A DNA stretch of 64,000 nt from an uncultured Planctomycetaceae bacterium (GCA_963815195.1 CAWFGE010000013.1:320001-384000); one strand, 5' to 3'. Shown: positions 1 through 23,348, numbered from the stretch's first letter. Notes: generated by a model from the sequence alone, not told the origin. Numbers and translations: made by a program.

Positions 1-3000
1 TCATCACCACGGGCATCATCGGGCGTTCTTTGTAGCGGTGCTGGACGAGGAAAATGTCGTGCACCGGATCGAGCCGCACTTCGCTGATCAGCCGACGGCC
101 GGGTTCCTGTTCGATGATCGAATCCACCATCGGAAACGCCTCCGGCCCGAAGGCATCGGCCGAATTGTGGGCCGCCGGTGAAGACAACAGGTTCGAGGTG
201 TTGGCGTATTTTTCCCGGCAGTAACCGAGTTCGGTAATCGCGATTTCCCGTTCCGGCAGGCCCGCGGCGATTTCATTGAGCAGATGCTCGCAGCCTTCGC
301 GGGCGGGCATGAAGGTGATGTTGTGCAACTTGGCGATGTGCTTCGATTCCGGCCGCACCGCCATCCCCACATCGTCCCACGCGTGCCAGTGGAACGTGGT
401 CACCGGGCAATCGGGCCGTTGCTTCTTATACCACGCCCCGAGCTTGGCGAGCATTTCGTTGGCGAGGCAGTAATCGGTTTGCCCCACGCCGCCGAACCGC
501 CCGCTGACCGAGCCGAACGTCACAAAAAACCCTAGCGGGTCGTTGATCGTCAAGGCCATCAGGTTCGCGGCCCCGTCGACTTTGGCCCGGATCGTGGCAT
601 CGACGAGTTCGAGCTTTTTCTTCTCGAAGCTGGCGGCCCGCTCGAAGCCCGCCCCGTGCACGATCCCGGTGATCGGGCCGCTGGTCTGGCGAATCTCCGC
701 GAGCAGTTGTTCGAGCGTCTCGCGGTCCGCAATGTCTGCGGAATGATAGCTCACATCCAGCCCCGCCTCGGCGAAGGCTTGGAGGTTCCGGTCGATCTCG
801 ACCGCCTTTTCAAATCTGGCCCAGACATCGATCGGCTTTTGACCGGCGGCGAGGGCTTCTTTCATCACGGCGGCTTTGTAGTCCTTTAAGTCGGCTGTGC
901 TAAATTGATGATACCCCGCCGGCACCAGAGGCTCTGGGCTGGAGCCGATCAAGTGCAGTTTCGCCCCGGTCCTTGAGCCGAGTTCGCGGGCGACTTCCGC
1001 CGTCACGCCCCGCGCTCCGCCCGTGACAACGAACACGCCGCCCTGCGGCAACTCGGCGGACTCGGTTTTAAGCGAAACCGCTTCCGGCCGGACCACAAAC
1101 CGCCGGCTTCCCAGGTAGCCAACTTCCAGTTCCGCATCGTTCGACAGCCATTCCCGAAGCGCGGCGTCGGCGAGTTCTTGCGGAGACATCGAAGCCGGGG
1201 CGTCGACGATTTTCGCGCGGAACGATTGCACATGCCGGGCGAGGCGGAGTTCCATCGCCACGCCTTTGACCAGGCCGGCGAGCGCACCGCTTTCCACGTT
1301 TTGCACATCGCCCGAAAACCCGAAGTCCCCGCCCAATTGCGTCAAGGCCAACAGCGAACCCTGGGCGAAGCGGTCGTCCGCGAGCATCAGTTGATACCAC
1401 TTCTGGCACACTTGATAAGGCAGCATCACCCCGCGCTGCCGGCGCTGATCCCACGCCGGCTCATCGAGATTCGTCACCGCTTCTGCAGCGCAGGTGGTCG
1501 CCAGGATCAAATGCGGCGACGGCGTGGTTTGCCAAACGGACTCCAATTTCGCCAGCAGGTTTTCGATGGATTCCTTCGCCGACAAATCCGTCACCAGAAC
1601 ATTGCACGATTGCAGTTTTTCCCGAATCGCCGCCGAGACGGGATTCTCGCCCACGATCACCACGCCGCCGGCGATTGGAGCGGTCTCGTTTTCCGGAAGC
1701 GGTTCGGTTTCGACCATCCGCATCGCGAATCGCTGGCAGACCGTTTTCTGATGGCGCTCTTCCGCTTGCCTGTAGGATTCGAGTAGTTCCTCGCGGGAAA
1801 TCGTGCTTGCGAAACTCGGCGAGGGATTTTCATTTGAAGGACCTTTTGATTCCGCGGACGAATGGGCCTGGAGTTCCGGCAGGAGTTCGCTGAGCTTCAA
1901 TTCGCAGAACTCATTTTGATGCCCGTTGGACTTGGGGCCGGCGGTGACCCACAGGTTGCCTCGGCCCGGCTCGAAAACGATGCTGATCTGGTTGTCCACT
2001 CGGCGGAGCGTGTTGATATTGGACGCGGGAACCTCGCGGCCCCGGCTGGGATCGAAGCGGTCCCGCAGGACTTGCTGTGCTCGTTCCGAAGTGATATTGC
2101 GGGGTGGATCGCCGCCCAGGAGATCGCGGAGCCGGTTCAAGCGGTGCTGCGAAGCGGCGGGGATTTCGCTGGCGAATGTCCGCATCAGCCGGTGGTTCGC
2201 GGAGATCACCGCCGGGGCGGTGGGCAGGACCTTGAGTTCGTGTCCATCGAACTCCACGTAACACACCCGGTCCGCGGCGTGATGGCTCAAGCACAAACTG
2301 AAAGCCCCGGCCTTGGGCAGTTGGCGGATGATCGCCACCGCGGTTTCGATGTCCTCCGCCTGCTCGAGCGCGGCTTTGACCATCACAATCGGCAGGCGGC
2401 CGACGGGGGACAATTCATCCTTGGGAATATCCAAGAGGGCCGCGGTGCTGATCGCCAGCCCGCGGGCGTTGATGCCGTTCAAACTGCCCACCTGCCCGGC
2501 GACGCCGAAGGTGATGCTCGCGAGCCCGTCCGCGGGTTTTCGGACTTGGATGACGCGGTCCAGACAATCCTGGACCCCCAAACCGAGCCTGAGTTCTTCA
2601 TTGGCCGCGTGGAGCAAGCCGTGATTTTGATTGAGCCGGGCCGTGACCGCGAAGTGCAACCCCCCGGCCCCGGCATCGAGATACAAGCGAAGGTTATGGG
2701 AAATCACGCTGCCCCATGTCACGTCCGCCCCCTTGGCGATGCCCCGCATTTCCTCCATGTCCCGAGGACCAAAGAAGGCGTCCGCCTGGGCCACGAGCGT
2801 TTCCATGTCCCGCATGCGGTCCCAACGGCTGCCGGCGAGGTCGGCGTACCGTCTGAGGATCGCGCGGATCTCCGCCTTGCGAGCCTGCCCGTGTTGATAG
2901 CCCATTTCATAAGGCGAGCCGGACAGCCTGAGCACATGGAGCCCGTGATGCTCTTCCACCACCGGCGATGCGTCGGCGACGGCAGATTCCACGGCCGGTT

Positions 3001-6000
3001 GTACGGAAGATGGTTCGGTGGCCCGAGCGATCCGCAGCCCGGAGGTTTGACGATCGGGATCGAGCGCCCCGGTGACTTCCACGCAGGCGCGGGCGGCGAA
3101 GAGTTGTTGGAGGCCGCTGCGCTTGGGATGATCGCAGCCGACGGTCACGAGTTCGCCATTGGGAAAGATGCGGTTGTGGAGTCCCGTGAGCACCTGCCGG
3201 GGACCGACTTCGATGATGATGTTGACCCCCTCCGCCACGAGCCGTTCTGCGAGGGCAACGTATTCCACGGGTTTCGTCATTTGGAGGACGAGGTTTTCGC
3301 GGATGTCTAACGGGTCGGCCACATAGCGGTTGGTGACGCTGCTCAACACCGGAACCTTGGGCGGCGTGATGGCGATTTGCTCGAGGGCCGCTGCGAAGGG
3401 CTTCTTGACCGGTTCCATCAGCCAGGTGTGAAACGCGGCGGGCACATCGAGAATTTTCGCTTGAAAGCCCTGTTGGATCACGGCCTCGGCCAATCGCGAG
3501 ACCGCTTCTTCCGTTCCACCCGCGACGGTCTGGTCGGGGGCGTTCTGGTGGGAGATGGCCAGGTCGGAAATCTGCCGGCAGTGGGTTTCGATCACGTCGG
3601 CGGGTGCGGAGGTGGAGACCAGGACACCGGGATTTTGGGCACAGTTGTCGATGGACTCGCAGCGGGCGCGGGTGGCGAGCACGGCTTCTTCAAAACTCCA
3701 AGCCCCGGCCGCGACCAAGGCCGCCAGTTCGCCGAAACTGTGCCCGAACACGCAATCGGGTTTGAGCCCCAGTTCGCTCACCGCCGCATACGCCAGCGTA
3801 TTCGCGACCAGCAGCGACAGCTGCGTCCGCCAGACATCGGACTCCAGCGGGTTCTCTTCCTGCCACGCGAGCTTGGCGAAGCTCGGGAGATCGAGTTTGG
3901 CGAGGACTTCGTCGAGCTTTCGGCACGTTTCCCGCGCGGGGGCGAAATCTTCCACCAAGGATTTGAGCATCCCCGTGTACTGCGATCCCTGTCCTGGAAA
4001 TGCAAACGCAATCCGCGGCGGCTCGCTGAGGACTTCATTCCAGAAGATGCCTTTGCCTTCCAGAATCGATTTCGCCGCCGGCTCCCGGCCCTGCTTGAGG
4101 AACAGATCGAGCTTCGCCGCCAGGTCGTCCGCGGACTCCGTGACGATCGCCAATCGATTGCGGTGCGACGCTTGGAAAGCCGATTGATCGGCTGCGGCAT
4201 AAAGTTTCCCGGCCTGCTCGATCGCGTCCGCGGCGGCATCCCAAAGCTCGGTTTCGTTCGCGGCCCCAATCCGCACGGTCCGCCAGGTTCCAATGGAATC
4301 TTGATCGGATTTCGCACTATCAATCGGCTTCGCGGCGTCACGGCTGGGTTTCGTGCGCGGGGCGGGAGCTTTGGGCACCTTCAATGCGCCTTCGATGATG
4401 AGGTGATACGCCACCTGGCATTGGGAGAAAGAATTGATGCCGGCGTACATTCGGCCGTCTTCGTTGAGGCCCGGCAGCTTCGCCGCGGTTCGGGAAAGAG
4501 CGAGCGTTTGCTCGTGGGATGAGATTTCCGGCCGGAGCGAATCGCCGACGACGTTGGGCGGCATCTCGGCGTGATTGAGTTCCGACATCGCCTTGAGCAA
4601 TTCGAGTGCCCCCGACACGCCGCCCGTGTGCCCGAACTGCCCGGCGACCGCGCCGATTTGAAGCTGAGCATCCCGCGGTTCGGAGCCGAAGGTCTTGACG
4701 ATGGCCGCGAGTTCGGCCTGGTCCTTTTGCGGAATGCCCGTGGCAGCCGTCTCCACGATGGAAATTTGCGACTGCGACAGCCCGGCATTCGCGTAACTGC
4801 GGTTCGGCGGCGAGCTTCAGGCCTTCTTCGAGAGATTCGCTTCGGGCCACGCCGATGCCGCGGATGATGGCATGAACGCGGTTGCCGTCGCGCTCGGCGT
4901 CGGAAAGCCGTTTGAGCAACAAGACCCCCACGCCTTCGCCGGGCACGCAGCCGTCGGCGTGTTGGTCGAAGGGACCCTTTGGCGACGTGAAGGTGAGCAG
5001 TCCATTGCGGGCCATGAGTTCATACGATCCAAAGCCCATCGCCCTATGCCCGGCGGCGCAGATCATCATGTCGCAGTCGCCCGTTTCGAGCAAATCCATG
5101 CAGGCGTTGAGAGCCGCCAACGACGAGGCATCGCCGGAGTCCACCGCCGTCGCCCCGCCCATCAGGTCGAAGGTTTTGGTGATCCGCGAGGACATGGTGC
5201 TCGCGGTGAAGCTGCCGGTCTCGTCGACCAACGCCGGCATCCGCTTGAGCAGGATTTTCTGGTACTCGTCGGCGATGCGGCCGATGGCCTTTTCCGGGAC
5301 GCCTCGTTTTCGCAGGCTGTTCGCGAGGTGCTTTTGGAACTTGGGCAGGCCCAGCCCCATTTGCAATTGCTCGCCGAAGTCGCCGCCGCAGAAAATCGTG
5401 CCCACGACCACGCCGGTCCGCAGGCGGTCGAAAGGTTTCTCCTTGCTGTATCCCGCATCCTGGAGCGCCTGGTCCGCGGCGTCGAGGAGCATGAACTGCA
5501 GCGGGTCGGCGGTGGCGATTTGCTTGGGCGGGACTTTGTGCTTTTTCCAATCGTATTCGAAATCGGTGATAAAGCCGCCGACGTTCACGGGCACTTTCCA
5601 GATCTCGTTCGATCCCGGCTCGTAGCCGAGGGACGCATCCCAGCGATTTAGCGGCACGGGGCGTTTTTGATCCTGCCCCGAAGCGAGAACGTCCCACAGA
5701 GCGTCCGCCGTCCGTGCCCCGGGAAACACGGCGCCGACGCCAATGATCGCAATCGGCTCGCAGCGCTTGCGGCTGAGAACGCGCGGTGCGCTGGTTGTCT
5801 TTTTCGATGGACCGATGAGTTGCCTGGCGGTGTCGGGGCGGCCTTCTTCCAAGACGACGTGCACATTGAGGCCGCCGATACCGAAAGCGTTGACGGCCGC
5901 TCGGCGGGGCCCGCCCGCGGCTGGTTCCGGCCAAGGCAGAGACTGTTGCGGGACGAAGAACGGCACCTGGTCCCATTGGATCGCTGGGTTTTGATGGTGG

Positions 6001-7250
6001 ATGTTGATTTGCGGCGGGATCAGGCCGTTTTTCATCGAGAGCACGGCTTTGACGAGGCTCGCCAGACCCGCCGATTCCAGCGTGTGGCCCACATTCGCTT
6101 TGACGCTGCCCACGGGAATTTTCTGGCCGGGCCGGAAGTGCTCGCCGAGGACTTTGGTGAGGGCCGCGATTTCGGTGGCGTCGCCGACCTGCGTGGAGGT
6201 GGCGTGCATTTCGACGTATTGGAGATCCTCGATCTTGAGTTCATCGTGATAAGCCCGGCGGATCGCTTCGATCTGCCCTTCCTGCCGGGGTGCCCAGAGG
6301 CTCTTGCCCTTGCCGTCGGAGGAAATCCCGATCCCGCGAATCACGGCCTGAATCTCATCGCCCGCGGCGAGCGCGGCTTCCAAAGTTTTGAGGCAGAGCA
6401 CGATGTAGCCGTCCGAAGCCACGAGGCCGTCGGCGTCGGCATCGAAGGGCCGGCTGCCCGTCGGGCTGACCGATTGGGCCTGAGAGAACAGCACCAGGCA
6501 ATCGGAATGCACATAAGACGCCCCGCCCACGATCGCCATGTCGATCTGGCCGAGTTGGAGCGCTCGAGCCGCGTGGCCCAAGGCCCGCAATGACGAAGCA
6601 CACGCGGCATCGAACGCCATGGACGGACCGTTCAAGTTGAGGCCCTGCGTAATCAAAGCCGCCGCGTGATACGCATTGGAGCACATGCGAAGCTGCGGAT
6701 GGTCGGGATGGAAGGGGCCGCGAAATTGGGCGATGATTTCGCGGATCACATCGTCCGCCTGCTCCGGCGTGAGTTGCTTGAAGTCGGCGATCTCGCGGAG
6801 ATACTGGGCCGCATGTTCCAGTTGCCGGGCATAAACCACCGCCCCGGCGAGCGCGCTGGGCGGGGTATGGCCGATGTAAACCCCCACGTTGTCGGTCGGC
6901 AATTTGAACGGATCGAGCCCCGCATGCCGGCACGCCGCAACCGCGACTTCATAGAGCCTTAAATGCACTTTGTGGGATTGGTTGATGAGCGACTGCGGCA
7001 GCGGGCTGGTTTTGGGATCGAACGGCCGCTCGGCCACCATCCCGCCCATCTTGGTGTAGGACTTGGTCTTGTGGCCTTTGTCGGGATGGTAATAGAGGGC
7101 GGGATCGAAACGTTCCGGCGGAAGCTCGCCCAGGTTGCTCAGGCCCTCGGCGAGCAAGCTCCAAAACTCGTCGAGATTGTCGGCTCCGGGCAGCCGGCAA
7201 GCCATCCCGGTGATGGCCAGGGGAATTTCCGCGTCAATGGATTTTGACAT
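1..7250 (-). CDS. Type I PKS, PUFA-synthase/Hgl-like: KS - CLF-like KS - AT - C45 Ntn-hydrolase-like - KR - DH; partial at window edge, one frameshift near 4805
   Basis: KS1 has DAACASS, EMHATST and GHTLE. KS2 has DSGDASS. After a frame change near 4805, spot translation in one frame gives FPGQGSQ and GHSFGE (AT, ~4020-3150), LRLSGSPYEMGYQHG and GSLNGINARG (C45-like, ~2950-1880), TGGARGV and GQTDYCLAN (KR) and HRYKERPMMP (DH, window edge). Confidence 0.9.
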
Positions 7251-7411
7251 TTTGGAAAAGTCAACGTGATGCAAGGCGAGGCGGGCGATATTGCATCGTG
7301 CAAAGGAACCGGCGCGAGTTCAGTTTGCGCCACATCAGGCGGGGCAGGGTGGAGTGGGCCTTCCGAACTCCGGCCGTGGGAGTTCGGAAGGCGAAGCGGA
7401 GGTTTTCGCGG

Positions 7412-8815
7412 TCAGCCCGCGGCTTTTCCCGGCGCGGCCAAGAATTCGCAGACGTGCCGCAATGTGGGGAAATCGTCGAGGGACAAATTCTCGTCGGTCA
7501 CATCGACCGAAATCGCAAATTGTTCGGCCAGTTCGCCCATCATTTGGGCTTTCTTGATGCTGTCGATGCCGAGGTCCGCTTCGAGGTCGGCATCCAACTC
7601 CACCATCTCCGGCGGGTAGCCGGTCTGCTCCACCACGAAGTTCACAAGGAACTCTTCGAGTTCATGCTGCCCCAAAGCGGACGGCGCGTCTGCCTGGGTT
7701 TCTATCTTGGTCTCGGGTTGGGCGGACGGATGAGTGCCATTCGCCGAGGGACCGGGCGGCGCGGCGGTTGTCGTGACAGGTGTCGCCGGAGCTGGAGAAA
7801 TGCTCTCGGCCACGGGGGTGGGCGTTTTCGTTTGAGGCTTCGCCGCGGTGGATCCCGAACTTGCCGATTGCAAAAACTCCATCACGTGCCGGAGCGTGGG
7901 AAAATCGTCCAGCGAGAGATTTTCATCGGCGACATCGACCGAGATGGAAAACTGCTCCGCAAGCTCGCCGAAGAGTTGAGCCTTTTTGATGCTGTCGATG
8001 CCCAGGTCGGCTTCGAGGTCGGCGTCCATTTCCACCATCTCCGGCGGGTAGCCGGTTTGCTCGACGACGAAATCGACGAGAAACGATTCCAAATCCACAT
8101 TACCCAGCGGATTCGCCGCGGGAGCCGAATCCTCTGCGGCCGGACGCGCGGAATAATGAACCGCCCCGTTCCCGTTGGCGTGCGGATTCACCGAACCATT
8201 GCTGCCCGGCTTTTCCGGCTCTCGGCTCCGGGCTCTCGGCTCTGGGCTCTGGGCCGGCTCTGGGCTCGCCGCTTTTCGCGCTCCGCTTTCCAGGAACTGC
8301 ATTACGTGGGCGAGGGTCGGAAAGTCGTCCAGCGACAAACTTTCATCGGCGACATCGACCGCGATTTCAAATTGCTCAGCGAGTTCCCCGAAGAGTTGAG
8401 CCTTCTTGATGCTGTCGATGCCCAGGTCGGCTTCGAGGTCGGCGTCCATTTCCACCATTTCGGGCGGGTAGCCGGTTTGCTCGACGACGAAATCGATCAA
8501 GAAGTTTTCCAAGTCCGCCCCGCTGAGTTGCCTGAGCGACGGGGCGGTCTTGGCGGGTTCGGGCGGATTGATGTTGAAAGCATCCAAAGTCGCCGCCGGC
8601 TCTTTTGGTTTTTCCGCTGGCTTCGGCGCAGGTTCCGGCACGGATTTCGGGGCCGGCGTTTGTTGTTGCGGTTCCGTTGCGGGCGAATCCTGCGACTTTT
8701 GGCGCATTTTCTCCTTGCGCCGCTGGGTCGCATCGAAATGGATGATTCCCGCCTCACAATCTTCAGTCAGCGCCTCGTGACCCAACATGTCGGACGCATG
8801 GATGAGTGAACTCAC
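7412..8815 (-). CDS. Stand-alone protein with three tandem acyl carrier (ACP) domains
   Basis: Three near-identical EQTGYPPEMV..DADLEADLGIDSIKKAQ units (DS phosphopantetheine site) joined by Pro/Ala-rich linkers. Confidence 0.92.
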   Translation of the reverse strand: MSSLIHASDMLGHEALTEDCEAGIIHFDATQRRKEKMRQKSQDSPATEPQQQTPAPKSVPEPAPKPAEKPKEPAATLDAFNINPPEPAKTAPSLRQLSGADLENFLIDFVVEQTGYPPEMVEMDADLEADLGIDSIKKAQLFGELAEQFEIAVDVADESLSLDDFPTLAHVMQFLESGARKAASPEPAQSPEPRARSREPEKPGSNGSVNPHANGNGAVHYSARPAAEDSAPAANPLGNVDLESFLVDFVVEQTGYPPEMVEMDADLEADLGIDSIKKAQLFGELAEQFSISVDVADENLSLDDFPTLRHVMEFLQSASSGSTAAKPQTKTPTPVAESISPAPATPVTTTAAPPGPSANGTHPSAQPETKIETQADAPSALGQHELEEFLVNFVVEQTGYPPEMVELDADLEADLGIDSIKKAQMMGELAEQFAISVDVTDENLSLDDFPTLRHVCEFLAAPGKAAG

Positions 8816-8936: not shown

Positions 8937-10478
8937 TTATTCCCCCGGCGAGAGGTTTGGACTCTTGCCGGCGGCGATTGCCAAATTCTGCAAGGCGTCG
9001 GCGAGGTCTTCTAAGGGAACCCCGTTGCCTTCGATCACGACGCGGCCAGTCCCAATGGCCTCTCCGGCATTTGTGCGGGATTCCGCCAATTGCGCGAATG
9101 TCGTGGTGTTGAGATAGTATGTCGCCGTGCATCGTGCGCTCAAGCCCGGACGCGTGGAAATCAATTTCCCCTGTTCCAATGTTAACTCCCATTCGCCGCC
9201 GCCAGGACCGTTGATCTGCAGCCCCAAATGGATCGGCGAGGAACTTTCAACATTTTTCGCGGCGGAATCCGAAACCAGCAGCCGGCCGGGCATCGGCTTC
9301 ATGCGGGCATGCACATCAAAAGCCGGGGCCGGCGGAATCATTCGCGGCCAGCCGAAATTGTTTTCGATGGCATACCGGCACATGCGGCGGATCACCGCGT
9401 GATTCATTTCCGGGCACGGCAAATGCGGCAGGGCGTGCTCGAGGTTTCGCCGGTCGAACGTCGGATCATCCTTCCAATACGCCTGGTAAACGGTCATCCC
9501 ATCCAGAAACGACTTGCGAAACAAGTCCCAATCGATGGATTCGGGCGTCAATTCGCTTTCGTAATCCATCTTGTCCAAGAAAACCTCCTCCATCACGTCC
9601 TGAATCATCCGCACCGACGTTTTTTGCGCCGGCGTGAGATGATAGGTCTTCTGGTGAAACTTGGGGGACTGGAAAATCTCGGAAATCACGCGAGAACACC
9701 AATCCACCGGCACCAGATTTTTGCACTCGTGGCCTTCGAGCTTTAAAATCTCCCGCAGACGCTCGGAAACCATTTTGATGACTTCCGTCATGCCTTCGCG
9801 GGACGCCCCCGGCATCGCCGCCCGCGAAAGCAGCGTGGAAACCAACTTCAGCGGCACGTAAAACCCGTGAAAGGTTGTGGAATAGCCCGTTTGCGAATCG
9901 CCCAGAATGATCGCGGGCCGATAAACCGTGACCGAATCCAAAAAGTCGGCCCCGCGGACGAGCAACTCCGCCTGAAACTTGCTGATTTCATAATCGTTGC
10001 CGTGTTTTTGGCCGACGTCGAGTTCATCTTCCCTCACGATGTCCTGCCGGAGTCCGCAGACATAAGCCGTGGAGACATGATGGAACTCGCGAATCCGCGC
10101 CTGCCGGGCGAACTCGAGGAGATATTGGGTCCCGTGCAAATTCGACCGCCAAGGCTCGCCGTCCGGCGAGTCGGCGTGGAACGTCAAACTGGCGGCATTG
10201 TGCAGAATCGCCCGGCAGTTTTCGGCGGCCCATTTCGCCTCGGCCTCTGTCAGTCCCAAACCGGGCTGGCACAGATTTCCTTCAAGCACGACGGGGCGGG
10301 GCAGCGCATGGCCCGCGGCTTTTTCCCAGCGGGCGACCAGATTTTCCACGCGGTGCACCGCCGATTCAAATCGGGTGCCACGAACCAAAACCGCCAATTT
10401 CACATCGGCGCGAAGCAGATCGCGAATCAAATAGGACCCTAAAAGCCCCGTGCCGCCGGTGAGGAAAACATAACTCAT
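8937..10478 (-). CDS. Thioester/fatty-acyl reductase (extended SDR, NAD_binding_4-like) with C-terminal SCP2-like lipid-binding domain
   Basis: TGGTGLLG, HVSTAYVCG and YEISK motifs. The C-terminus GLQINGPGGGEWELTL...AIGTGRVVIEG resembles SCP2. Confidence 0.85.
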   Translation of the reverse strand: MSYVFLTGGTGLLGSYLIRDLLRADVKLAVLVRGTRFESAVHRVENLVARWEKAAGHALPRPVVLEGNLCQPGLGLTEAEAKWAAENCRAILHNAASLTFHADSPDGEPWRSNLHGTQYLLEFARQARIREFHHVSTAYVCGLRQDIVREDELDVGQKHGNDYEISKFQAELLVRGADFLDSVTVYRPAIILGDSQTGYSTTFHGFYVPLKLVSTLLSRAAMPGASREGMTEVIKMVSERLREILKLEGHECKNLVPVDWCSRVISEIFQSPKFHQKTYHLTPAQKTSVRMIQDVMEEVFLDKMDYESELTPESIDWDLFRKSFLDGMTVYQAYWKDDPTFDRRNLEHALPHLPCPEMNHAVIRRMCRYAIENNFGWPRMIPPAPAFDVHARMKPMPGRLLVSDSAAKNVESSSPIHLGLQINGPGGGEWELTLEQGKLISTRPGLSARCTATYYLNTTTFAQLAESRTNAGEAIGTGRVVIEGNGVPLEDLADALQNLAIAAGKSPNLSPGE

Positions 10479-16827: not shown

Positions 16828-19118
16828 ATGCTCGAACGGCGAGAGTTCTTAAGCGGATTGACCTCGATGGGCCTGGGATTCAGCCTCTTCCCGCTGCGGC
16901 CATCGATCGGAGCCGCCCCGAAGCCGGCCCGGTTGGCACCGGCGATGCCCGGCGAGGGTGTCTTTGCGTACCTCCGCCGGACCGGGCGAGGCCGCGATCA
17001 AGATTTGTACAGATGGATTCTGGGAGCCGCCAACGAATTCAAGGAAGGCGATCAGATTGTCGGGATCGCCGCTTTGAATGAGGGCGAGCGCCGCGAAGCC
17101 CGCCGGTTGTTGGCGGCGACGCGGATTGCCGACCTCAATAAGCGTCCGGTGTTTGGGGATCGATTCTACGACTTCATCACGAAGGATCCTGGCGCCAACG
17201 CGGTGCAAAGCCCGGCCGAAATGACGTTGGGCGATCTGAAGGCGTTTCTGCTGCATCGAGAGGAGCCGGACGTCAAATCTCTGGCGGCCGGCCTGTCCAG
17301 CGATGTGATCGGCTGCGTCGTCAAGCTCATGTCGAATGAGGAGTTGATCGCCGTCGGCGCGAAGGTTTTTCATCCTCTGCCCGGAAGCCAAATCGGGGCC
17401 AAAGGGTATCTCGGCGCACGAATCCAGCCCAACTCGCCGACCGATCACGTGGAGGACATTCGCTGGCAGGTTTTGGACGGCTGGGCCTATGCGGTGGGGG
17501 ACGTGGTGCTGGGGACCAATCCCGTGTCCAGCGACCCCAAGTCCGTGGCCGCGGTGGAAGAGACACTCAAAGATTTGCTCAAGACCTTCGGCCTCGAAGA
17601 CGTTCTCCCGCACTGCGTGCTTTCGCACATCGACGTGCAGGCGAAAGTCGAGGAGCAGCATCCCGGCAGCACGGCGATCTGGTTTCAGAGCATCGCCGGC
17701 TGCGACACCGCAAACGCGACCTTCGACATCAATCTCAAAAAAATGCTCGATTACACCCGCCGGCGGAAAGGGCGATACGGATTATACTTTGAAACCGGCC
17801 AAGGCGCGGATTTCACCAACGGCCACGCCCACGGATTCGACATGGTGCTTCACGAATCGCGGAAGTACGGATGGGCGAGATCCCTCAAACGCGTGCTCGC
17901 CGAGACCTTGAAAGAAGCCCGCGCCCCTTTGAGCCCTGGCTGCATCTGAACGATGTCGCGGGCTTTATCGGCCCGGAGGTGTTCCGCACCCGCGAACAGT
18001 TGGTCCGCTGCTGCCTGGAAGACATCGTGATGGGCAAGCTGCACGGCTTGTGCATCGGGCTGGATGTGTGCTCGACCTTGCACATGGACATTTCCTTGAG
18101 CGACCTGGATTGGTGCCTCGATCAAATCCTGCCGGCGAACCCGGCGTATCTGATGGCCCTTCCCACAAAAATCGATCCGATGCTGGGTTATTTGACGACC
18201 GGATTTCAAGACCACGTGCGGCTGCGGGAGAAGTTCGGCTACAAAGTCAACGACCGCATGGCCCGGTTCTTTCAGGAGTTGGGCGTGATCGATTCCCAAG
18301 GGCGGCCGACGCCGCACTTCGGCGATCCCCTGTGGGTGTTTTTGCAATACCGCCGGCGAAAAGGTGATGCCCGCAGCGATCAGGAACTCCTCGCCGAAGG
18401 AGCGGCGGAGATGGACGCCGTGCGCGGGCGGGGGCTGTTTCTCGCCCAAGGGCACGGCCCAAATCCCTGGGATATGAATCCCTCGCTGGAAAAGCAAATC
18501 CAGCGGATTTATGCGGACGCCAAAAAGTGCATCTGGACCGAATGGAATCCGAAATTCGTCGCTCAGATTCCCGAGGAGTTGCCGCTTTCCACCCGCTCCG
18601 CCGACCGCACCGATTACATTCTGCATCCCGAAACCGGCGAGCGACTTTCGCCAGAGTCCCAGGACAAACTGGCCCGGCTGCGAAAACAACATGCTGGACG
18701 GTACAACGTCCAGATTGTGATTTCAGACGGCCTCAATGCGCTCGCCCTTATGGATCCGGGACAACTCGCACCGTTTCTCGCGAAGCTGCGGGAGGAACTG
18801 GACGATGCCGATTACAAGACGGCCCCCGAACCCATCGTGCTCACGTCGGGGCGCGTGCGGGCCGGTTACCGGATCGGCGAGGCGCTGTTTGGATCGCTCC
18901 CAAATCCGCGGGCGGTCTTGCACATCATCGGCGAGCGTCCCGGCTCTGGGCACCATACGTTTTCCATCCACATCACCTCCACCACCGGTCAAACCTGGGG
19001 CCAACCTGGGAAGGTTGATCACAACATCACCAAAGTGGTGTCCGGCGTCGCGGTCACGGCCCTTTCGCCCGCCGCCGCCGCGGTGGAAACAGTCCGCCTG
19101 CTCAAAACGTTGATGTGA
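16828..19118 (+). CDS. eutBC: Ethanolamine ammonia-lyase, fused EutB-EutC, with Tat-like leader; frameshift near 17925
   Basis: EutB motifs RIQPNSPTD, YFETGQG, NDVAGFIGPE and LEDIVMGKL; EutC motifs VISDGL, GRVRAG and IIGERPG. Confidence 0.88.
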
Positions 19119-20534: not shown

Positions 20535-21794
20535 TCACGTCGTATAGTCCGCGTTCAAACGCACGTATTCCGCGGTGAGGTCGCTCGTCCAGAACCGCAC
20601 GCCCGCGTTGCCTTGGGAGAGGATGAGCTCGATGCTCGTTTCGCGGGTTTTTTTCAGGGACTGAGAAACGGCGGCGGCATCGAACGGCGTGGGTCGGCCA
20701 CTTTCGTAGAGCAGGGTGCCGTTTAGGCGGAGGGTGATCTCGGCTTCTTGAATCTCGACGCCGCTGTAGCCCACGGCGGAAACAATCCGGCCCCAGTTCG
20801 GATCGCCGCCGGCGATGGCGGTTTTGATCAGCGGCCCCTCGGCCACGGTTTTCGCAATGCGGTGCGCCTCTCCGCGGTTTCGGGCGCCCTGGACATCGAT
20901 CGTAATAAAATGCCCCGCGCCCTCGGCATCGCGAATGATCGCCTGGGCCAGTTCGGCGGAGAGAGAGTTGAGTGCAAGTTGAAACGGCGAGCCGACCAAC
21001 CTCCGGTCGGTGCCCGCGTAAGCCCCCTGGTTATTTCCACTGAAGGAACCGCTCTCTTTATTTTCATGACCAGGGGGCTTACGCCCCCCGCTCGCCAGGA
21101 GGATTACGGTGTCGCTGGTGCTCGTGTGGCCTTCGACGCTGATACAGTTGAAACTCTGATTCACCGCTTCCCGCAGCATGGCATCGGCCTCGGCGGGCGT
21201 GAGCGCTGCATCGGTCATAATCACCGAAAGCATCGTGGCCATGTTGGGGCCGATCATCGCTGCCCCCTTGGCCGCCCCGCTGATCCGCACGGTTGTTCCA
21301 GCGAGTTCCGCTTCCCGCACGGCTTGTTTGGAGACCGTGTCGGTCGTCATCATCGCCCGGGCCGCGTTGTGAAATGCCTCTGGAGTATCGGCCAGATGGG
21401 AAACCGCCAACGGAATGCCCGCCCCCAATTTCTCCAGCGGCAGAAACCGCCCGATGACGCCCGTCGAGCACACCAGGACATCTTCCGCGTCGCAGCCGAT
21501 TTGCTTGGCGAGTTCCGCGGTCATCCAGCGGGCGTCGTCTTCGCCCTTTTCGCCGGTGCAGGCGTTGGCATTGCCGGAGTTGATGATGACTGCCCGGGCC
21601 GAGCCTCGGGGAACCCGCGTCCGCGAGACCTTCACCGGGGCCCCGACGACTTTGTTCTGCGTGAACACCCCCGCCGCCGTGCAAGGCCCATCGGAGACGA
21701 AAATGGCCAGATCGAGCAACCCGGGATCAGGCTTCACCCCGCAATAGACCCCCGCGACGCGAAACCCTTGGGGCAATGGAAATGTCCCAGACAT
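20535..21794 (-). CDS. argJ: Bifunctional ornithine acetyltransferase / N-acetylglutamate synthase
   Basis: AGVFTQN, NSGNANACTG, KGAAMIGPNMATML and DPNWGR motifs; contains an in-frame repeat insertion. Confidence 0.95.
   Translation of the reverse strand: MSGTFPLPQGFRVAGVYCGVKPDPGLLDLAIFVSDGPCTAAGVFTQNKVVGAPVKVSRTRVPRGSARAVIINSGNANACTGEKGEDDARWMTAELAKQIGCDAEDVLVCSTGVIGRFLPLEKLGAGIPLAVSHLADTPEAFHNAARAMMTTDTVSKQAVREAELAGTTVRISGAAKGAAMIGPNMATMLSVIMTDAALTPAEADAMLREAVNQSFNCISVEGHTSTSDTVILLASGGRKPPGHENKESGSFSGNNQGAYAGTDRRLVGSPFQLALNSLSAELAQAIIRDAEGAGHFITIDVQGARNRGEAHRIAKTVAEGPLIKTAIAGGDPNWGRIVSAVGYSGVEIQEAEITLRLNGTLLYESGRPTPFDAAAVSQSLKKTRETSIELILSQGNAGVRFWTSDLTAEYVRLNADYTT
20986..21096. repeat. 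Family B REP doublet inside argJ, one arm interrupted by element C
   Basis: GGCGAGC-[CGACCAACCTCCGGTCGGTGCCC]-GCGTAAGCCCCCTGG ... CCAGGGGGCTTACGCCCCCCGCTCGCC. Confidence 0.85.
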
Positions 21795-21816
21795 CAGCAC
21801 GATCCAAGAAAAAGGC

Positions 21817-21880
21817 CCCAAGCCGACGACTTGTCGTCGGATCTCGTCAGATTCGACCGACGACAAGTCGTCGGCTTGGG
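21817..21880. repeat. Family A REP doublet (CCCAAGCCGACGACTTGTCGTCGG and inverted copy)
   Basis: Two perfect inverted 24-mers, 16-nt spacer, between argC and argJ. Confidence 0.92.
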
Positions 21881-21903
21881 TAGAAATCAATGATAGACAC
21901 GTT

Positions 21904-22914
21904 TCACATCAAAGCCGTCGTTTCCGGCAGGCCGAGCATCAGGTTGAAATTCTGCACCGCCACGCCCGCCGCGCCTTTGATGAGATTATCCGTCGCCGAG
22001 AACACAATCAACTGCCCCCGCGAGAACCTGAGGCCGATGTCGCAGAAATTCGTGTGGGCCACGTGCTTCGTCGCCGGGATGTGATCGACCACGCGGATGA
22101 ACGGCTTGTCCTGATAAAACTCGCGGTAAAGTTCGAGCAGCTCCGCTTCCGTTGCTTCGCGTTTGAGCCGGGGATACATCGTGCACAAAATGCCCCGGTC
22201 CATTGGGATCAAATGCGGCGTAAAGATCACGTGCACTTCTTTGCCGCTGGCTTGGGAGAGGACCTGCTCGATCTCCGGCGTGTGCCGGTGGTTGCCGACG
22301 CTGTAGGCGGTCAGGCTTTCGTTGCATTCGGGAAACAGCGTGGTGAGTTTGGGTTTCCGCCCGGCTCCGCTGACGCCGCTCTTGGCGTCGATGATAATGC
22401 CCGCCGGTTCGATCCAATCTTCGCACAACAGCGGCGCGAGTCCCAAAATTGACGTGCTGGTATAACAGCCGGGGTTGGCGACGAGGTCGGATTGGGGAAT
22501 GCGGTCGGCGAACAACTCCGGCAGCCCGTAAACCGTGCTGCCCAGCCGGGTGGGATCGGTGTGGACGAGGCCGTACCATTCCTCGTAAACGCCGGGATCG
22601 CTCAAGCGGTAGTCGGCGGAAAGATCGATCACCTTCGCCCCGCCCGCCAAGAGTTCGGGAATCGCTTCCATGCTCGCCCCGTGAGGCAGACAGCAAAACA
22701 CAAACTTCGCGCGGGCCGCGGTCTCGGCGGGGCTGAGATTCTCCAACCGCAAATCCAACAGCCCCGTCAACTGCGGATGCACTTCGCGAACGTGGGGCGA
22801 ATCCTCCTGGCGCGTGGTGAGGGCGGTGACCCGGGCCCCCGGATGCCGGACCAGAATTTTCAACAGTTCCAGCGCGGTGTAACCCGTCGCTCCCAAAATC
22901 GCAACGTCAGGCAT
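21904..22914 (-). CDS. argC: N-acetyl-gamma-glutamyl-phosphate reductase
   Basis: [28 protein letters not shown] and DNLIKGAAG motifs. Confidence 0.96.
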
Positions 22915-23348
22915 GGTTTTTAAGAAATCCCAATGACCAGGCACCAATGACCAACTCAAAGTGCAAACGGTTGGGTGGCTGGGGCGCAAATCCCCCTTTG
23001 AATCAGGCTTAGGTTGCAAATACTGGGGCTATGGACGAGCTAGAAAAAAATCACATGGCCCCAGACCTCTGAACCCTGTTGTCCTCGGGATTTTCTTTTG
23101 CGCCCCAGCCACCCTTCAGCTTCCATTTGCAGTCTGAGCAACCAACAAGACCGACGCCATTTTCGTGCGCGGGTTCGCGGATCGCAAGCGGCAATCGGAA
23201 CATTTGGGTTTGGCGCTTTTCAAAGCGGACCGAAAAGGTCAGAATACCATTCTCCACCATAGCCCTATTCGCCCATTTCCTTTCGATTTGGGATGATTGT
23301 CTCACGGTCTCAAAACTGACACACACCATTTGAACGAGGACTTCTCTC

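Follow-up and report, generated by a model that had tools for sequence, protein, structure and literature searches.

The window analysed here, a 64,000-nucleotide stretch of contig C13 in genome G000 of an uncultured Planctomycetaceae bacterium, carries a PKS cluster on its minus strand. The PKS has the domain order KS1-KS2-AT-C45-KR-DH and runs from position 7274 to C13:319261, beyond the left end of the window. Profile matches and motif reading placed KS1, with intact Cys-His-His motifs, at 5829-7229; KS2, which has an Asp at the catalytic Cys position and is split by a frameshift, at 4382-5765; the AT, with an intact GHSFG serine motif, at 3047-4006; and the KR, also with intact motifs, at 197-1741 (structural part 1741-1082, catalytic part 1051-197). 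The DH starts within positions 1-136 and ends at C13:319261. A free-standing tri-ACP protein with three GIDS serine motifs is encoded at 7412-8815 (minus), and a thioester-reductase-like (TR) protein of the NAD_binding_4 type, with a weak C-terminal SCP2 match, at 8937-10478 (minus). The latter gene is the only copy in the genome; its product matched PF07993 with 152.9 bits and TIGR01746 with 133.8 bits, under the cut-off of 213, and its motifs are intact. Outside the window, the PKS is followed by genes for a PPTase, a Rieske oxygenase and a FabL-like SDR (252 bits against a cut-off of 328). The cluster genes from TR to PRS include this SDR, and none of them is annotated as PfaD.

Relative to three same-genus genomes, one extra base at 4801-4802 (minus) splits the PKS into two ORFs. 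It is probably an assembly error, since the same-genus genomes are each frameshifted elsewhere and G018 has a single ORF of 2659 codons. Catalytic motifs were present wherever they were sought in the cluster, the KS2 Cys excepted. KS2 appears to be chain-length-factor-like, an Asp in place of the Cys being what a chain-length factor would show.

The window cluster has tandem ACPs, a CLF-like KS, a KR, a DH and a PPTase in common with PfaA-type and Hgl synthases, and its KS and AT score best against the PKS_plus_SDR and PfaA models, below the cut-off. It differs from both in having a FabL-like SDR as ER and in carrying KS, KS', AT, KR and DH in one chain, and from the PfaA type in that its ACPs lie on a separate gene and a second KS and the C45 domain are inserted. 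With TIGR02813 (PfaA) the two pieces of the PKS reached 333 and 383 bits against a cut-off of 1010, scores that the frameshift lowers. PfaA-type and Hgl synthases are not known to carry a C45 domain. A thioester reductase belongs to the Hgl gene set (figure legend of PMC11804610), and a TR linked to ACPs and a PKS was indeed found in the window cluster. The main text of the survey PMC3098273 contains neither 'C45' nor 'aminopenicillanic'.

Elsewhere in the window, argC and argJ (20535-23019, minus) share the strand of the cluster and are found 10 kb upstream of it, and two overlapping ORFs at 16828-19118 (plus), named by eye, resemble one ethanolamine-ammonia-lyase-like gene split near 17900, probably by another assembly frameshift. 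The genome has further type I PKS genes at C13:398749-410029 and C10:312452-320932, in which a PF03417 search of the genome gave no C45 match.

A C45-type domain between AT and KR

The C45 domain consists of 357 codons (2950-1880, minus) in frame with the PKS, inside the ORF at 2-4756 whose stop lies at C13:319261. This ORF runs off the left end of the window, and the stretch is therefore absent from the closed-ORF track. All the motifs that the original prediction had quoted for 1880-2950 were found in the minus-strand PKS frame, and its call of a C45/Ntn-hydrolase domain between AT and KR was borne out by two profiles and by a structural model. The domain matched PF03417 (Pfam) with 47.6 bits (cut-off 23.2; E 2.2e-12) and NF040521 (NCBIfam) with 140.5 bits (cut-off 85), and phmmer matched it to IAT (2x1c) with an E of 4e-10. 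The AlphaFold2 model (pLDDT 92.8, pTM 0.92) had 2x1c as its top Foldseek match (E 4.7e-20). Alignment of the two with VIA-align gave a Z of 35.1 and an rmsd of 3.0 over 322 residues, and revealed an Ntn fold with its N-terminal alpha part.

IAT (PenDE; peptidase C45; 2x1c, 2x1d and 2x1e) thus shares the fold, and the positions of its Asn119, Asp121, Asn246 and Arg268 are kept in the window domain. The latter differs in having Gly for Cys103, in its ~22% identity, and in lying inside a megasynthase, whereas IAT stands alone. Acid ceramidase and NAAA (precursors 5u81 and 6dxw), which are lipid-acting Cys-Ntn hydrolases, also share the two-part fold of the precursor (Z 30.2 and 29.2), but at 12-14% identity, and both self-cleave and are stand-alone proteins. 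On these comparisons the window domain would be classed as a homologue of the peptidase C45 family and not filed as an active member. A model of C45 and KR together (pTM 0.63) gave two confident units in no fixed orientation, with residues 367-378 of the linker below 50; a rigid packing of C45 against KR was absent from it. The second C45 domain that had been proposed to lie downstream was not found, as the PKS ends with one DH and only then come the PPTase, Rieske and FabL-like genes.

Glycine at the nucleophile position

The catalytic set of IAT is Cys103, Asn119, Asp121, Asn246 and Arg268 (accessible text of PMC13044924, citing Bokhove 2010). In the window domain it reads Gly97, Asn117, Glu119, Asn252 (2195-2197, minus) and Arg270 (2141-2143, minus), with Asn117-Glu118-Glu119 (2594-2602, minus) aligned to IAT Asn119-x-Asp121, a conservative change of Asp to Glu in the third residue. 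At the place of the Gly-Cys cleavage site the Cys nucleophile is replaced by Gly97, and the loss of the nucleophile that the original prediction had read from the DNA was confirmed: codon 2662-2660 (minus) is GGG. Sequence-only alignments to IAT are shifted by three columns here, and the assignment of Gly97 was therefore made from the structural alignment and from an alignment to the paralogue. In the former, model residue 97 is the first one aligned to the mature beta chains of acid ceramidase (5u7z_B, from 143), NAAA (6dxx_B, from 126) and cephalosporin acylase (1ghd_B, from 1); in the latter, it pairs, with no gaps, with the Cys of the intact paralogue of the same genome. Since position 97 holds no Cys, Ser or Thr, Ntn chemistry predicts that the domain should neither self-cleave nor form an acyl-enzyme.

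Could the glycine be a sequencing error, or the mark of a recently broken gene? The probable indel at 4801-4802 and those of the relatives would fit such an origin, but Gly-Gly is present, with other codons, in three same-genus genomes, and in 40 proteins, four codons being used. The homologues thus refute an error, to which we assign a negligible probability. The C6 run at 2660-2665, for which the original prediction had suggested a check of the reads, is no indel error either, as the frame is open on both sides of it and the same-genus genomes read Gly-Gly as well. Among the assembled contigs of four DNA runs, those of X1, which may be the source sample, have a depth of ~5 in the bin with codon 2660-2662 and no other letters; the frameshift at 4801-4802 is spanned by none of the four runs.

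The C45 family and the glycine clade

Homologues were collected by a protein search restricted to 1007-3205 residues, which gave 69 matches from 8000 scored candidates, and by a profile search, which gave 164 clusters at E ≤1e-30, 150 of them among the matches listed. The C45-synthase domain occurs in 54 of 398 genomes of the planctomycete family and in 5 of 401 drawn from the phylum; named records also came from Pirellulales, Polyangia, Ca. Sulfotelmatobacter and Thermomicrobiaceae. A plasmid search gave 23 records, all with <60% identity (of the 10 listed, 8 carry a C45 annotation), and the ESM Atlas gave C45 clusters only. Most members are multidomain synthases in which C45 stands just before the KR and often follows directly on one to four ACPs; fused relatives have their ACPs immediately ahead of the C45 domain, in agreement with the earlier remark that it sits where ACPs normally lie. 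In some loci and proteins (L087, L088, L167, P0048, P0049, P0065, P0100 and P0105) C45 is directly before a DH, with no KR, or there is no AT between KS2 and C45. The domain thus appears in these variants as a module that moves. Automatic NCBI names already label some of these proteins as C45-family. A literature search, with supplements and most subscription papers outside its scope so that a mention in a BGC table could be missed, returned no description of a C45 domain in a PKS, and the architecture is apparently undescribed.

The nucleophile column was covered in 180 of 205 proteins, with Cys in 121, Gly in 43, a gap in one and another residue in 15 (Ser 6, Ala 4, Thr 3, Leu 1, Glu 1). The scoring of homologues for Cys versus Gly, a check suggested with the original prediction, thus separated a majority with Cys from 40 homologues that make up one Gly clade. 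These 40 of the 43 Gly copies group with a support of 0.999 in a tree of 169 rows, from which the motif columns were left out and 11 gappy rows dropped, and with 100/100 in a careful tree of 61 chosen rows. All clade members lack an internal ACP, and the clade falls on the side of the tree where the Cys copies lack one too. In the 61-row tree, five eroded copies fall on the other side from the Gly clade. The bootstrap values suggest two independent losses of the nucleophile, which the AU test does not secure, as a single origin of the Gly and eroded copies was not rejected (p 0.25).

Within the clade (n = 40), Gly97, Asn252 and Arg270 are present in 40/40, Asn117 in 39/40, and an acid at position 119 in 40/40. 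In the 19 other non-Cys copies, Asn117 is kept in 2, the acid at 119 in 9, Asn252 in 5 and Arg270 in 9, and the fold residues Gly152, Gly159 and Asn161 in all 19. Eroded copies hence keep the fold glycines and lose Asn117, Asn252 and Arg270, which are therefore not needed for the fold generally. On the tree of the Gly clade (length 20.3, median 11 changes per site), no changes were counted at Gly97, Asn252, Arg270, Arg317 and Asp319, and only 21 of the 357 sites are unchanged. Gly97 is written with all four codons across 29 loci. Arg88 (2687-2689, minus) is almost confined to the clade (39/40 vs 13/121 Cys copies), and Trp43, Thr188 and Asn342 are also clade-specific. The position that relaxes is 119, with Glu in 9/40 vs 2/121 Cys copies; in acid ceramidase the equivalent residue pairs with the free N-terminal amine (accessible text of PMC13044924). 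Of seven Gly pairs compared, six had a dN/dS of 0.05-0.12 for the domain, and the remaining one, a close pair (dS 0.09), had 0.20. These values fall among those of the AT, KR and DH domains, as well as among those of Cys pairs (0.03-0.28). Measured against KS, KR and DH, the drift of the domain is 1.26 in the Gly clade vs 1.10-1.11 in Cys synthases. The pocket of the Gly clade is under selection. Since the rest of the active site is fixed across the clade, the domain probably has a working, non-catalytic role and is not debris. The original wording, an inactive or acceptor-binding domain, is still the best reading, yet the conserved residues and dN/dS values indicate a domain that is not decaying.

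A different account of this conservation is that the domain is a structural relic, an undeletable spacer in the middle of a megasynthase whose old catalytic residues are kept to hold the uncleaved linker. The slightly faster drift than in Cys copies would agree with it, as would the heavy erosion tolerated in other lineages, the truncated C45 domain at the Gly locus L191, and the long-branch members P0139 and P0135, which are beginning to lose motifs. It is harder to reconcile with the loss of Asn117, Asn252 and Arg270 from eroded copies that keep the fold glycines, and with the finding that Gly97 never becomes Ala or Ser among the 40 sequences; moreover, the C45-KR model, having no fixed orientation, does not suggest a rigid brace. 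We consider a relic unlikely, at odds of roughly one to three.

Neighbouring genes and chain release

From 105 loci, 82 of them distinct, 36 PKS loci with enough flank were retained. All 11 full Gly loci carry TR and none carries GH3, a count biased towards 11/11 by the 'full flank' rule, under which an observed TR could stand in for the upstream flank; in these loci the ACPs are on a separate gene. The 21 full Cys loci have GH3 in 11 cases, TR in four and neither in six, and TR is present in three of four full loci with another residue. TR and GH3 were never found together (0/36). Two partial Gly loci with long flanks, L167 and L087, lack TR; L167 is a second copy in a genome that also has a TR cluster. 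On the tree, three changes of the nucleophile and two of TR were counted, and the TR/Gly pattern rests on 2-4 changes. An independent-pairs test of nucleophile loss against TR gave no support, because the independent events are too few, and the TR/Gly link is not statistically independent of kinship.

TR homologues are encoded in 355 of 398 family genomes, those with Cys synthases included, and are mostly unlinked; the presence of TR per genome was accordingly dropped as a marker. The TR(-SCP2) gene looks like a near-universal planctomycete acyl reductase that usually stands alone; of the 20 TR loci read, only 2 belong to a PKS cluster. The hallmark of the Gly cluster is a TR beside the PKS, which in G000 is the sole TR of the genome. 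High-scoring TR genes of genus g331 were considered as flanking a PKS with a deleted C45, which proved wrong, as these genes stand alone. Among the 50 typed genomes (of 54), a Cys PKS alone occurs in 27, a Gly PKS alone in 12, a Gly PKS with a stand-alone Cys copy in eight and neither type in three; the two PKS types never share a genome (0/50). In the g45-like Cys cluster L064 (15895-20153), GH3 is followed by a SAM-methyltransferase-like gene, named by eye (no NCBIfam match at 1e-25), and a Rieske oxygenase.

The ACP protein of the window opens with an FDAT plus basic-helix motif (8702-8746, minus), a candidate docking element. An FDATxxR plus basic-helix motif was found in 35 of the 36 full PKS loci, after the AT in fused synthases and at the start of the free ACP protein in 11/11 full Gly loci. 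Since it stays where C45 is eroded, it may dock the ACPs onto KS/AT.

An intact C45 copy is encoded on contig C17 of the same genome (C17:357196-358632). The protein, of 478 residues, combines an ACP-like domain without the Asp-Ser motif and a Gly-Cys C45 domain, and a GH3 gene follows directly (pair C17:357196-360349; L037 11197-14350). The same pair occurs in three same-genus genomes. In G001, the stand-alone copy is preceded by a Rieske gene, and GH3 by a transposase-like gene (named by eye). In G307 and G632, GH3 is ~5 kb further on, behind argB, argD and argF. In genus g44 (L104 2542-7636, L174 11887-16954) the order is argB-argD-argF and then GH3, the families having been scanned in L104 only; this neighbourhood in g44 hints at ornithine as the amino acid. 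Five Gly genomes without a stand-alone copy each have a GH3 gene of 40-43% identity, like the second GH3 of G000, and these are uninformative.

The GH3 beside the stand-alone copy belongs to the GH3 family but reached only 122 bits with NF052613 (OlsH; cut-off 620). OlsH, the lyso-ornithine lipid synthetase, is a planctomycete GH3 of the OlsH/OlsI ornithine-lipid pathway of Singulisphaera, in which it is paired with an acyltransferase; it joins a fatty acid to ornithine using ATP, giving N-acyl ornithine (accessible text of PMC12493201 and PMC12971839); the main text of PMC12493201 does not contain 'PKS', 'polyketide' or 'C45'. A GH3 gene comes after 11 of the 21 Cys clusters and after the stand-alone copy of the window genome. 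The use of a fatty acid plus ATP by OlsH fits a Cys C45 domain that frees the acid.

The stand-alone copies are 41% identical to the Gly domain, and in the tree they nest among GH3-bearing Cys synthases; they look like remnants of a Cys synthase plus GH3 cluster. Their ACP-like domain lacks the Asp-Ser motif in 10/10 read, so that they need an acyl donor from elsewhere. The original prediction had offered a partner role with an active C45 copy, and C17 does carry an intact Cys copy in trans. If the partner were obligatory, the Gly domain would dock it or hand it the chain. The need for an outside donor, the nesting among Cys synthases, and the distribution of the copies, in eight Gly-PKS genomes of three genera and 0/27 Cys-PKS genomes, would suit this role. 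However, 12 of the 20 typed Gly-PKS genomes, several of them >90% complete, lack a copy, with five candidates scored per genome, and the acyl donor may be ordinary fatty-acid synthesis. With a copy in only eight of the 20, we regard an obligatory partnership as very improbable.

Taken together, the data favour, at about one chance in two, an uncleavable, acyl-carrier-binding pseudo-enzyme in a synthase whose chain is released by the linked TR. The cluster, the domains, motifs and order of which were observed directly, would be an iterative Pfa/Hgl-like fatty-acyl synthase with a tri-ACP, a PPTase, a FabL-like enoyl reductase, a Rieske oxygenase and TR. In the Cys relatives, by analogy with IAT, the Gly-Cys C45 would split the megasynthase into two pieces and unload the finished chain from the ACP, and the free acid would pass to the GH3 amide ligase where one is encoded. 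The Gly copy would remain permanently uncleaved, bind the acyl-phosphopantetheine or the ACP, and hold or gauge the chain, which the linked TR would free as an aldehyde or alcohol. The TR at 8937-10478, a candidate release enzyme, was absent from the earlier prediction. In the genus of the window, the stand-alone Cys copy beside GH3 may in addition draw chains from the same ACP, yielding an N-acyl amino acid. Counted against the pseudo-enzyme reading are the few events behind the TR/Gly link, the AU test, the two partial Gly loci without TR, the mostly unlinked TR homologues, the four Cys clusters with both Cys and TR, the somewhat faster drift of the domain in the Gly clade, the truncated domain at L191, the frameshift of the window PKS as assembled, and the possibility that the kept residues simply stabilise the uncleaved linker. 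A complex prediction of the Gly domain with TR scored 0.00 in both runs, with controls not folded, and so weighs on neither side.

Catalysis without a nucleophile would use the same residues differently. The Asn/Arg pocket would activate the acyl-ACP thioester for water, an amine or a TR-made alcohol (a wax-ester-type step), and Gly97 would leave room for the phosphopantetheine arm. The invariance of Gly97, Asn252 and Arg270, the clade-specific Trp43, Arg88, Thr188 and Asn342, and purifying selection equal to that on catalytic domains point in this direction, and the coexistence of TR with an intact C45 in four Cys clusters indicates that the two need not be redundant. In IAT-type enzymes, however, the uncleaved linker would block the active site. 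IAT and its relatives gain their activity only with the self-cleavage that exposes the N-terminal Cys (accessible text of PMC13044924), and literature searches found no precedent for such catalysis. We therefore hold this mode of action to be doubtful. Just as doubtful is its boldest form, in which a family of lipid megasynthases cuts itself in two by means of C45, an in-line release domain so far undescribed, and the Gly clade has made of it an uncleaved Ntn catalyst that transfers the chain without a protein nucleophile, e.g., onto a reductase-made alcohol.

A cysteine-less C45 domain in a synthase is real and reproducible across genomes. Many Pfa-like synthases have no thioesterase, and how they release the chain is an open question; here an Ntn domain beside ACPs has an intact, a glycine-substituted but conserved, and an eroded state in nature. 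A PKS specialist would find the architecture surprising, the window copy being its nucleophile-less form. From the intact form one would predict a megasynthase that cleaves itself and a new chemistry of release, and the glycine form lends itself to a clean test of a pseudo-enzyme. The products to be expected from the cluster are planctomycete lipids of an unknown kind, alcohols or N-acyl amino acids.
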